Part shown: piece after piece, positions 1,891 through 61,999 of the stretch
Layout: each line of letters starts with the position of its first letter
Numbering within the stretch: the stretch's first letter is position 1
Assembly: GCA_023231475.1 (NCBI GenBank)
Contig: JALJEE010001544.1
Span: 1 to 64,000 of the forward strand
Direction: 5' to 3'
DNA length: 64,000 nucleotides
Source: Seison nebaliae
Taxonomy: Eukaryota
Made by a program: the position numbers and the translations under genes
Notes under the pieces: model-generated
What the model was told of the DNA's origin: nothing
The model's input: the letters and a program-made list of their open reading frames with translations, nothing else
Databases searched by the model: none

Positions 1891-3339
1891 ATGAGTTTAT
1901 TATCTTTCGCTATTCGACGACGATTTTTGCTTTTCTTCTCTTATCGAGGTGGTGGTTATAGGTTTCCATTTTTCTATTAAGTTTTCTTCATCTGAAATAA
2001 ATTATCTAAATTTCGAAATAAATTGAAATTGATTAGTGGATTAGCGAGACAACCTGCACAGTCAGGTCCAACAATACAAGAAGCTTTGGAAGTTTATTTT
2101 TTTTCTATCAAACAACTTTTTTACCGAAATAATTAGGATATAGTTTCGGACTATTCTAATCGTAAAACTTCCCTTGAATTAAGTAGTCGGACTGATAAAG
2201 GTGTTCACGCTCTCACCAATACAGCTTGTTGTGATTATTGGGAGAAATTGTTAAACTTTTAAAATATTATTGATCCGTTTAGAATTTGAGTTTTAGAACG
2301 GATCTTTATCCCATTTCCAATCTGGAATATCTTCGTTTGTTGTTCAATTATCGATTGAAACATTTGGATCATAAAATTCAGTTAATTTTTAAAAGAATTT
2401 TCATAAAGTATAAATTTTTTTTAGTATCCAACGAATTTTGAGAGTTCCATTTCGTTTCTCTGCTCGATATAATGCTTCAAGTAGAACTTATATTTATAAG
2501 TTATTTCTCATAAATTTTTTTTGTAAATAAGATATTTTCTCATAAAGATTAGCGTATGATAATCAATCGAAAATTGAACATATAAAATCGAATCATCGAT
2601 TAAATGTTCGTCGACTATTTACAAAATTATCAGAAAATTCAAATCGTGTCACAAATTTACCTTTACATCAACAACAATCTATTCGATTAATTCGGTTAGT
2701 TTTTTTCTAGAAATTTTTGAATTAATTGGGCGAAGTGGAAAGTTCGATATAGAATTATTCAAAGAAGCTATTGCTATTTGTGAAGGACAACATAATTTTA
2801 ATGCATTTACTACAAATAAAGGTCGAGAGGCAAATCGAAATCCTATAAAATCATTAAAAACAGAAATAATATCTGCACCAGAAGAACAATTACATTTAGG
2901 AAATGAATTTATTGACGATCATTTAAATTATGTCAATTTGAAAATCACATCATCTTCTTTCCTTTATAAACAAATTCGACGAATGATCGATGTGTGGATA
3001 AAAGTTGCCCTCAAAATGATTTCGATCGAGGAATTGAAACAGATGTTGTTGATACCTCCAGATTATTATGAATCAAATCGAATTCAAACTGAACGAGCAC
3101 CACCGTTATCTTTACTCCATATCAATTACGATTGGGAGATGTTGAAGCATTTTCAAAAAGTATATGACGATTATGAAAATCAATTTCAGTCGACTGATCT
3201 CCCATCCATCAATTATGATGAAAGAACATTATTATTTCATAAAGAAAGTCTCGAATTGGATGATCAATTATTCACACAATTTAAATTCGTTAAACGTAAT
3301 CGAATACATCCCTCCTTCGAATACAATCAAGATATTTAA
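1891..3339 (+). CDS. PUSL1: tRNA pseudouridine synthase, TruA family (PUSL1-like), multi-exon
   Basis: Hand splicing gives MSLLSFAIRRRFLLFFSYRGGGYSGL...TIQEALE, the catalytic SSRTDKGVHA motif, FSARYNASSRTY, GQHNFNAF, SFLYKQIRRM and APPLSL. Introns are short GTT...AG. Confidence 0.85.
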
Positions 3340-3423
3340 AGAGAAAACCGGAAATTTATTAGGAAAATAACGAAAAAACTGAACAGAAAAAATACATGTA
3401 ACTTTATTGTGAAAAACATTTTT

Positions 3424-5136
3424 TTATTGGACTGAATGTCGATGAATTAGAGAGTCTTTTGTTATCAAAATTGACGGTCGGAGCATGATGAGACCATCAG
3501 ATTTATTTACATTTTTTTTCATCTTTTCCATAAAATTTTCATTTATTTTATAAAGATCTTTCACATTCAAATTGATACATGTCGATTCATTGTCAACTTC
3601 CATAATTGTTGAAATTAGCAACTTATTCTTTGCTTTCTTTTCTTTCATTGAATTAGAATTATTTGTCGTTTCCGAATGGAAACCACTATCTTTCGTTATT
3701 TCAGATGTTCGAGAAGTGTTCGATCTAATTTTCGACTGATTCTTTTTCAATCGAACAAACGTCACATTCTCTGACATTTGCTCTCCACTGTTAGTTCGAT
3801 GTCTATGAATATATTTTCGGAATGTCAACAAATTCTTCTTCCACGGATTCCATGGATGATTCGTAGAAGATTTGATTCTATCGATTAATGTTGCCGGTTT
3901 CGGTACTTCCATTGTGGTAGGAAAATTTATAGAGACTTTTCCATCTACGTCGATCGCATTTTGTCTCACCAATTTCTTTTCGATTGATTTGACTGATGTC
4001 GATTTTTTTATTCGTTTGTTACTCTTCGAACTATTCTCGGAATTGTTTAATGAAAATAAATTGATTTTATCATGAAAATCATCAGGTAATTCTGATCGTT
4101 TTCGTTTTTTTTCATTTTTCTGTATGAAATTTTGACGTTCTTCTAAAATGTGATAAATTTGATTATATATGCCACCCAATTTCCCATAAGGGACTTTCTG
4201 TTTCGCTTGTTTTATTTTCTCATAATTGAATCCCATTCGTATCATATTCCTCATTGTTCCTTGTTCAATCTTCCTATTTTCACATGTCATAATATTCTCA
4301 TTCATCTCCTTCTTATATCTAATCCATGTGTGTTTATAGATTTGTTGGAAGTTAAATCGTTTCTCTTTCTCATAAACGAGAATACGAGATATTAGATCTT
4401 TACATTCTTTCGATATAAAGAATGGTAAAGTGTATTGACAACTGATGACTTGTCGTCGAATTTCTTGATCATTTTCACCAAGAAATGGCAAATATCCACT
4501 CACCATCGTGAATAGTAGAACGCCCAAAGACCAAATGTCAGCGGATGTCCCGTCATGATCCTTTCCTTCAAATACTTCCGGTGCTGCATATGTCGGTGTG
4601 CCACACCAGGATTTTAATGGAACATTCTTTTGGAAGGAGGTGGCGAAACCGAAATCACATAATTTAATGTTGTTATTCTCAGTCAATAGAATGTTCTCCG
4701 CTTTCAAATCACGATGAACAATATTGTGACTGTGACATTTCTCTACTGAACGACAAATGTTATAGAACAGTTTCCGTGCATCATCTTCGTTCAATCGTCC
4801 ATTCTTACATAAATATTTAAATAGATTTCCATTTGGTAAATATTCAGTGACCAAATATAACATCGATGGCGTTTCCATTATTTGAAAGAGACGAATAACT
4901 TCCTTTACTTTTTGAAGTTTCTTCAAACTCTCAATCTCTAAATAGGCTCGTTCATTCTCCTCTTTATTCAATTTCTCCTTATCAATCACCTTCACCGCCA
5001 CATAATGAGATAGTAATGAATGTCTTGCTAATTTGACGAGAGAGAAATTGCCCTTATCAATCGTCGAATAGAATTCATAGAAGTTGATAATATTGCCCGA
5101 TGTGTTCAGTTGGGACTTGTTGGGAAAAGATTCCAT
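3424..5136 (-). CDS. AMPK-related Ser/Thr kinase, SIK-like, intronless
   Basis: KGNFSLVKLARH, VAVKVIDK, HRDLKAEN, CDFGF and SWCGTPTYAAPEVFEGK are present; WCG..YAAPEVFEG is typical of SIK. A UBA-like segment follows the kinase domain. Confidence 0.85.
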   Translation of the reverse strand: MESFPNKSQLNTSGNIINFYEFYSTIDKGNFSLVKLARHSLLSHYVAVKVIDKEKLNKEENERAYLEIESLKKLQKVKEVIRLFQIMETPSMLYLVTEYLPNGNLFKYLCKNGRLNEDDARKLFYNICRSVEKCHSHNIVHRDLKAENILLTENNNIKLCDFGFATSFQKNVPLKSWCGTPTYAAPEVFEGKDHDGTSADIWSLGVLLFTMVSGYLPFLGENDQEIRRQVISCQYTLPFFISKECKDLISRILVYEKEKRFNFQQIYKHTWIRYKKEMNENIMTCENRKIEQGTMRNMIRMGFNYEKIKQAKQKVPYGKLGGIYNQIYHILEERQNFIQKNEKKRKRSELPDDFHDKINLFSLNNSENSSKSNKRIKKSTSVKSIEKKLVRQNAIDVDGKVSINFPTTMEVPKPATLIDRIKSSTNHPWNPWKKNLLTFRKYIHRHRTNSGEQMSENVTFVRLKKNQSKIRSNTSRTSEITKDSGFHSETTNNSNSMKEKKAKNKLLISTIMEVDNESTCINLNVKDLYKINENFMEKMKKNVNKSDGLIMLRPSILITKDSLIHRHSVQ

Positions 5137-61664: not shown

Positions 61665-61751
61665 CAAAAAAATTTATTAATATATTTCCATTATAAATGA
61701 ACCGCAAATATTAATTATTATCAATAATCGTTTTCTTCGCGAGGAGAAAAT

Positions 61752-61999
61752 TTACAACTTAAGTTTGGTCTTTCTCCAATGACGTCTCTTGGCATTATAA
61801 CTGAAAAAAGAGTGTTATTAGAGAAAAGTAGGAAGAACAAACTAACCGGATTTTATTTCCCGTCTTCATCTTAATCCATGGCGGAATTGGTTGATTCTTC
61901 TTTTGGAAACGACCAAGCTTCTGCTTGATAATAAATCTCTTGTGAGACGGCTATAAAGGAAATTTGAATAAATTTTGGGATATGAAAGATACAAACCAT
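61752..61999 (-). CDS. RPL39: 60S ribosomal protein L39 (3 exons; 46-nt introns at 61951-61996 and 61801-61846); absent from the ORF track
   Basis: Spliced [51 protein letters not shown]. Confidence 0.97.

Follow-up and report, generated by a model that had tools for sequence, protein, structure and literature searches.

Do the introns of the rotifer Seison nebaliae begin with a donor sequence of their own, and if so, which part of the spliceosome reads it? The question is raised by a stretch of 64,000 nucleotides (GenBank assembly GCA_023231475.1, contig JALJEE010001544.1, positions 1 to 64,000), called the window hereafter, which is eukaryotic in character and has 30% G+C. A purine at the third intron position (+3) is the rule in animals. 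An original prediction made from the letters of the window had proposed that its short introns begin with GTT, often GTTAGT, on account of a spliceosome with shifted specificity. The analysis presented here confirms the preference for GTT and locates it in the Seison lineage, while the extended GTTAGT consensus does not hold; a matching change in the U1 small nuclear RNA (snRNA) is discussed as a tentative explanation.

GTT donors prevail in the window

Introns were placed by a Viterbi gene finder blind to the donor beyond its first two letters, which demanded only GT and AG at the intron ends and open frames, penalized introns by their length alone, and took its codon scores as log-odds from 8582 codons in the ten longest open frames. 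Genes with a score of at least 30 comprised 68 introns, including 57 short ones (at most 80 nucleotides), and the frame stays open only with the removal of each of these 57. GTT opens 49 of them, GTA four, GTG three and GTC one. A curated set of 51 was obtained by subtracting three introns of a tandem array, which are counted separately, and three antisense introns (all GTT) that were predicted opposite longer plus-strand frames. Its donors are GTT in 44 cases, GTA in four, GTG in two and GTC in one. GTT accounts for 0.408 of the 5575 GT dinucleotides on both strands, and 44 of 51 lies far above this background (binomial p = 2e-11). Likewise, T occupies +3 at a frequency of 0.86 in the curated introns as against 0.451 in intron interiors (p = 1e-9), the rounded interior composition being T 0.45, A 0.32 and G 0.08.

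The preference is the same in all intron phases, with GTT in 18 of 21 introns of phase 0, 19 of 22 of phase 1 and 12 of 14 of phase 2. Where a single frame-compatible GT exists within 30 nucleotides of the junction, 35 of 40 donors are GTT, which excludes a bias towards stop codons at +3; an in-frame stop begins at that position in only 6 of the 57 short introns. On decoys made from the reversed window and from its complement alone, no gene reached a score of 30 and no intron was placed in a gene of that rank. The introns are short, as had been anticipated from an estimate of about 40 to 55 nucleotides: their median length is 46 nucleotides (n = 90), with 10th and 90th percentiles of 40 and 63. 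Altogether the window contains 89 short introns and several long ones, about 95 in 64 kilobases.

Two further gene sets, counted apart from the curated introns, agree with them. Six tandem paralogs span positions 15773-29870, with mutual identities of 67-87%. The finder was unsuited to this array, since a heavy start penalty returned nothing and a lax intron penalty led it to cut away conserved coding parts, and the copies were spliced at aligned columns instead, giving open frames of 444-457 amino acids in all six. All but one of the 36 array introns start with GTT, as the earlier reading of this array had it; the sole exception is intron 2 of copy 4, with GTGGTT at 23481 and an alternative GTT donor three nucleotides downstream. 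These are six ancestral introns and not 36 independent ones. Pairwise identity among the array donors reaches 0.94 at +3 as against 0.43-0.76 at +4 to +8. On the opposite strand, both introns of RPL39 are also GTT introns, exactly as read before: the first (61996-61951) follows the ATG immediately and begins GTTTGT, and the second (61846-61801) has the junction CG|GTTAGT. With 44 of 51 curated introns, 35 of 36 array introns and both RPL39 introns, the GTT donor preference of the window is confirmed as real, and frames remain open after GT-AG splicing in the myosin-chitin synthase gene (3448 amino acids), the six array copies and RPL39.

The array proteins have a hydrophobic N-terminus and a HGDLHRSN-type motif. 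The largest array exon found no Pfam match in the three copies scanned, apart from a faint ABC1 kinase-like match (E = 0.09) in one of them, and the label of a kinase array is a guess, not a finding.

The donor beyond +3

Donor information is concentrated in GTT and a weak A or T at +4, and the other positions carry little. Among the 51 curated donors, A stands at -2 in 28 and at -1 in 26 (G in 12); +3 is T in 44 and a purine in six; +4 is A in 26 and T in 18. The bases are nearly even at +5 (A 16, T 13, C 11, G 11) and spread at +6 (T 19, A 16, C 9, G 7), after which T is found at +7, +8 and +9 in 23, 28 and 33 donors; in the set of 57 introns, T occupies +9 to +11 in 35-37. The usual animal consensus, with a purine at +3 and G at both -1 and +5, describes few of these donors (6, 12 and 11 of 51), and at +5 G exceeds its share in introns by a modest margin only. 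Residual preferences in the register of U1 are nevertheless visible in the A at -2, the A at +4 and the G at +5.

No strict extended hexamer emerges, the commonest being GTTATT in 6 of 51. GTTAGT is a minority donor (4 of 51 curated, 6 of 36 array and one of the two RPL39 introns), and its description as frequent was an overstatement; GTTTGT lies outside the twelve commonest hexamers of the curated set and occurs in 2 of 36 array introns and in one RPL39 intron. Of the proposed shift in specificity, the shifted donor preference therefore stands and the GTTAGT consensus does not. The heptamer GTTAAGT is absent from the curated donors. Minor U12-type introns were considered and rejected, none of the 51 donors starting with GTATCC. 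A YTRAY branch motif lies 5-35 nucleotides from the 3' end of 29 of 54 introns, without a preferred distance.

A relative that keeps GTA

The original prediction had pointed to related taxa for comparison. When metagenome contigs were scanned with the chitin synthase P0012 of a bdelloid, 11 loci came up, and the contigs called bdelloid-like here were identified as such by protein identity only; the predicted protein of one of them, L012, is 79-89% identical to P0012. The contigs L011 and L012, each of about 40 kilobases and from different metagenome records, are near-identical over 20 kilobases and share the same predicted introns. As a control, the same finder was run on L012, its codon scores now learned from L012 and L015. 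It returned 59 short introns, with GTA in 39, GTT in 15, GTC in three and GTG in two, on a background where GTT makes up 0.456 of all GT and T makes up 0.40 of the introns. The difference from Seison is pronounced (Fisher p = 8e-11). In eight further bdelloid-like contigs (L013-L020), with junctions taken from the best protein alignment, 17 of 18 donors are GTA. The bdelloid-like introns resemble those of Seison in being short (median 56 versus 46 nucleotides), in belonging to an A+T-rich genome, in having a weak donor beyond +3 and in sharing ten positions. They differ in +3, which is A in 39 and T in 15 of 59, and in a clearer G at -1 (25 of 59 versus 12 of 51) and at +5 (22 of 59 versus 11 of 51). 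Relative to these contigs, a donor shift specific to the Seison lineage is supported.

The ten common positions belong to the myosin-chitin synthase gene, whose L012 ortholog has 32 introns (GTA 24, GTT 5, GTC 2, GTG 1). At these ten, which share alignment column and phase, Seison has GTT in eight, GTA in one and GTC in one, and L012 has GTA in seven, GTT in two and GTC in one. Because other animals have a purine at +3 and the relative has GTA at shared positions, the comparison supports GTA as the ancestral donor, with introns converted in place in the Seison lineage. The conversion of old introns, which had been proposed from RPL39, thus draws its support from the ten shared introns and not from RPL39. 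One of the ten (Seison 33076-33128, L012 8659-8714) has the identical unusual donor GTCTCA on both sides; its preservation letter for letter in the two lineages suggests an extra constraint at this site.

The myosin-chitin synthase gene

The largest source of homology-supported junctions is a gene joining a myosin head to a chitin synthase. Its open reading frame at 35417-43030 (+), of 2538 codons, is 100% identical to the NCBI entry 'hypothetical protein SNEBB_003598 [Seison nebaliae]' (P0001, 3786 amino acids), and the next-closest relatives of P0001 are chitin synthases with a myosin head from bdelloid rotifers. Splicing 19 GT-AG introns between 30781 and 35474 produces an open frame of 3448 amino acids without a stop, and the earlier count of 16 GTT donors, with one GTA, one GTG and one GTC, proved exact. 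Homology-guided placement with distant Seison homologs had yielded four junctions only, one of them poor, and a multiple alignment was used instead. Homologs align without a gap over eleven junctions, after P0001 residues 60, 163, 201, 295, 360, 386, 483, 512, 570, 629 and 860. The GenBank model, mapped onto the window through P0001, has 26 GT-AG introns (GTT 21, GTA 2, GTG 2, GTC 1).

The longest intron and its GTTAGT donor had been recognized correctly, and the conserved FVR|CIKPN motif supports the intron. Inside it the GenBank model has an exon of 162 amino acids (33507-33992). This exon is missing in bdelloid, mollusc and annelid homologs, which align with P0001 residues 34 to 648 and then from 810, and it splits the motif; for these reasons it is probably a mis-called exon within the 914-nucleotide intron. 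The last six exons of the model (43400-44236) find no support in any homolog examined. The chitin synthase part is a single exon of 7.6 kilobases, the corresponding region being split by many introns in the bdelloid-like ortholog, and a long run of degenerate peptide repeats with an ENHQ-like motif lies between the myosin and synthase domains.

Other genes and their introns

Pfam domains in the window belong to an F-actin capping protein beta, a pseudouridine synthase, a protein kinase, a formin, a WD40 protein, the myosin head exons and chitin synthase, a TPR protein and a leucine-rich-repeat protein. A PDB search identified the TPR protein as CTR9, whose frame (59177-55608, minus strand) is one open exon from ATG to stop. 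It aligns with human CTR9 from residue 2, and therefore a coding intron is unnecessary; the intron formerly attributed to this gene falls away for its coding part. Open-frame prediction, without homology, placed the introns in 7680-9522, 43361-43675, 46560-46790 and 59465-61016. All placed features are collected in Table 1.

Table 1. Genes and introns placed in the 64-kilobase window, with donors and the basis of placement
Feature	Position	Strand	Donors	Basis and remarks
Pseudouridine-synthase-like gene, 6 short introns	1962..2735	+	GTT (all)	Finder; Pfam PseudoU_synth_1 on last exon
Introns of this gene	1962-2036, 2092-2136, 2250-2296, 2381-2424, 2500-2547, 2695-2735	+	GTT	
Predicted gene, family not assigned, 8 short introns	7680..9522	+	GTT 7, GTC 1	Finder prediction
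GTT introns of this gene	7680-7725, 7827-7872, 8395-8437, 8574-8611, 8963-8999, 9132-9196, 9352-9397	+	GTT	
GTC intron of this gene	9476-9522	+	GTC	
Formin gene, 10 introns	12356..14477	+	GTT (all)	Finder; Pfam Drf_GBD, Drf_FH3, FH2 on exons
Formin, 236-nucleotide intron	12356-12591	+	GTT	
Formin, nine short introns	12844-12889, 12983-13046, 13250-13294, 13535-13582, 13722-13771, 13937-13982, 14105-14146, 14280-14326, 14414-14477	+	GTT	
Six tandem paralogs, about 1.7 kilobases each, 6 aligned introns each (36)	15937..29354 (introns)	+	GTT 35/36	Self-alignment
Myosin part, 19 introns	30781..35474	+	GTT 16, GTA 1 (31136), GTG 1 (32025), GTC 1 (33076)	
Longest intron, 914 nucleotides	33185..34098	+	GTTAGT...CAG	FVR|CIKPN motif joined only by removing the intron
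Six GenBank-model introns 3' of the large chitin synthase exon	42951..44137	+	GTG (42951), GTT (43453, 43630, 43732, 43834, 44091)	Predicted; finder disagrees here
Three predicted short introns	46560..46790	+	46560-46611 GTT, 46699-46742 GTT, 46751-46790 GTG	GTG intron doubtful: preceded by an 8-nucleotide exon
Predicted short intron	54599..54651	+	GTAAAG	Finder
Leucine-rich-repeat gene, 6 short introns	59465..61016	+	GTT 5, GTA 1	Finder; Pfam LRR on exon
GTT introns of this gene	59465-59504, 59757-59800, 60144-60183, 60665-60704, 60894-60943	+	GTT	
GTA intron of this gene	60975-61016	+	GTA	
RPL39, two 46-nucleotide introns	61801..61996	-	GTTTGT, GTTAGT	Spliced frame 51 amino acids; Pfam Ribosomal_L39 E = 4.5e-8, middle exon

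What reads the third position

A loss of pairing alone would let +3 drift to the composition of the introns and not to 0.86 T, and because of this we infer that U at +3 is read in a base-specific manner; the position varies less in Seison than in the bdelloid-like relative. By analogy with Entamoeba, the reader may be an A in U1 opposite +3 (ACUAAC type), so that the changed part of the spliceosome in the Seison lineage would be U1 nucleotide 6. Such a co-evolved U1 is a plausible explanation of the GTT donors, to which we would give slightly less than an even chance. The broader proposition, that an intron-rich animal recoded +3 from A to U in nearly all of its introns together with a matching U1 change, thousands of introns co-evolving without prior intron loss, is put forward still more tentatively. 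A narrow intron length would help to pair the splice sites, and the proposed intron definition by length would agree with the narrow range observed.

The window itself holds no U1, U6 or other snRNA at Rfam gathering scores, and E-values up to 1 bring in only a chance match to a plastid family. A U1 was found by a two-motif pattern in L004, a contig of 795 nucleotides from a Gammaproteobacteria bin, and was used as the reference for two Seison DNA runs. L004 carries a complete animal-type U1 gene (Rfam 143.8 bits), a eukaryotic contamination of the bacterial bin. At 80% likeness, the runs each gave one contig aligning over L004 letters 43-160, with 18 other letters and two gaps. Nine of the differences lie at letters 79-125, and three of these are in the 3' strand of stem I, predicting compensating changes in the 5' strand. 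This U1-bearing contig is probably Seison's own.

Several observations weigh against a U1 altered at nucleotide 6. A U1 differing only as ACUAAC predicts a clear GTTAGT logo, and no such consensus is supported; G at -1 and +5 would then be expected at unchanged strength, though both are weaker than in bdelloids. GTA, GTG and GTC donors remain in use at the homology-supported junctions 31136, 32025 and 33076. The aligned U1-bearing contig extends from inside U1 past the first nucleotide (L004 158) of a reference of canonical type. The other nine of its differences fall no further than about 30 letters from the aligned ends; in letters 148-158, the U1 5' end, anything from zero to a few changes may occur. 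In both runs the depth of this contig is about half that of the window's contigs, and 16 of the 30 letters upstream of U1 are G or C, which makes its origin in Seison less certain. Finally, the analysed DNA is a single window of 64 kilobases, and the support for every junction comes from open frames, homology and conservation among paralogs.

The main alternative is a canonical U1, with U at +3 selected at the U6 step through a G-U wobble with the G of the ACAGA box, U1 pairing being reduced and the narrow intron length helping. The weaker G at -1 and +5, the main U1-pairing positions outside GU, would follow from it, and so would the U1 gene from the Seison runs, which aligns with canonical U1 up to and past nucleotide 1; a preprint notes that U at +3 extends U6 ACAGA pairing of positions 2-6 (bioRxiv 10.1101/2022.06.08.495308). 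Full pairing of this kind would also favour U at both +4 and +6, with G at +5 between them, however, whereas Seison shows A at +4 in 26, G at +5 in 11 and T at +6 in 19 of 51 donors. Moreover, the U6 ACAGA box is conserved across eukaryotes, which leaves a shift confined to Seison, with bdelloids unshifted, unexplained. On balance we regard this explanation as unlikely, though to be taken seriously. A changed early-spliceosome protein (U1C, LUC7, SNRNP27 or a U-binding factor) that prefers U at +3 and a U-rich stretch behind it, with unchanged snRNAs, would suit the T-rich +7 to +11 positions and a donor with little base-pairing information apart from +3. The introns are T-rich throughout, however, and the T-run may reflect composition alone; we also know of no precedent for a protein reading +3 alone in a base-specific manner, and consider such a change improbable.

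Two other explanations have very little left in their favour. Were U1 to pair one base further in, on donors of the GTTAAGT type, these would indeed begin with GTT, but the G expected at +6 is found in only 7 of 51 and the heptamer in none; donors in a shifted register were accordingly rejected, and it would be surprising if they accounted for the pattern. That GTT is a by-product of composition or placement, through T-rich introns, in-frame stops after GT or a bias of finder or annotation, can appeal to introns with 45% T and to the few stops at +3. Against it stand a T frequency at +3 far over that of the introns, the dominance of GTT in all three phases, and homolog alignments that fix many of the junctions. 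On a bdelloid-like contig whose composition is similar, the same finder moreover returned GTA, and on decoys it returned nothing; finder bias was rejected on these grounds, and we give the by-product as a whole hardly any credence. Of all these explanations, we consider a co-evolved U1 the most probable.

Comparison with known systems

A minority of human donors is reportedly recognized in a shifted register, as described by Roca and Krainer in 2009. Like the Seison donors they begin with GTT, but they are rare and carry the rest of the consensus one base inward, whereas in Seison that inward consensus is lacking and GTT is the rule. The literature searched does not mention GTT donors for Seison, for rotifers or for any other animal, and term searches of the full text of the Seison genome paper (PMC8351084) and of a paper on lamin (PMC10125929) found nothing on a donor consensus. 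As far as we searched, a lineage-wide switch of the 5' splice-site consensus to U at +3 is new for an animal, and is found in print only for Entamoeba.

The consequences are practical as well as evolutionary. Seison introns will be misplaced by gene predictors and spliced aligners whose training assumed GTR donors, and the GenBank model SNEBB_003598 already carries an exon that homologs do not have. The persistence of GTA at shared intron positions in bdelloids makes the switch datable within Rotifera, with Acanthocephala as one group to look at. With a changed U1, Seison would offer a clean natural experiment that isolates the reader of +3; with an unchanged one, it would be an animal that selects its 5' splice sites with hardly any U1 pairing.

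The closest known system is Entamoeba. The preprint describes GUUUGU(U) donors there, faced by a co-evolved U1 that reads ACAAAC, and in Mastigamoeba a second candidate for a modified U1, with another matching change (bioRxiv 10.1101/2022.06.08.495308). Entamoeba and Seison have in common a near-universal U at +3, a switch from A to U relative to the common eukaryotic consensus, and homogeneity across the lineage. They differ in extent, as the full GUUUGU hexamer occurs in 88-90% of Entamoeba introns and the Seison donor is confined to GTT followed by A or T at +4, and in the standing of the U1 change, which is demonstrated in Entamoeba and predicted in Seison. In the preprint, the Entamoeba switch is discussed under a model in which introns were lost first, freeing the spliceosome and the few introns left to co-evolve (bioRxiv 10.1101/2022.06.08.495308). 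Entamoeba genomes, in this account, are intron-poor, whereas the Seison window is densely filled with introns, and the same switch in an intron-rich animal would put the intron-loss-first model to the test.

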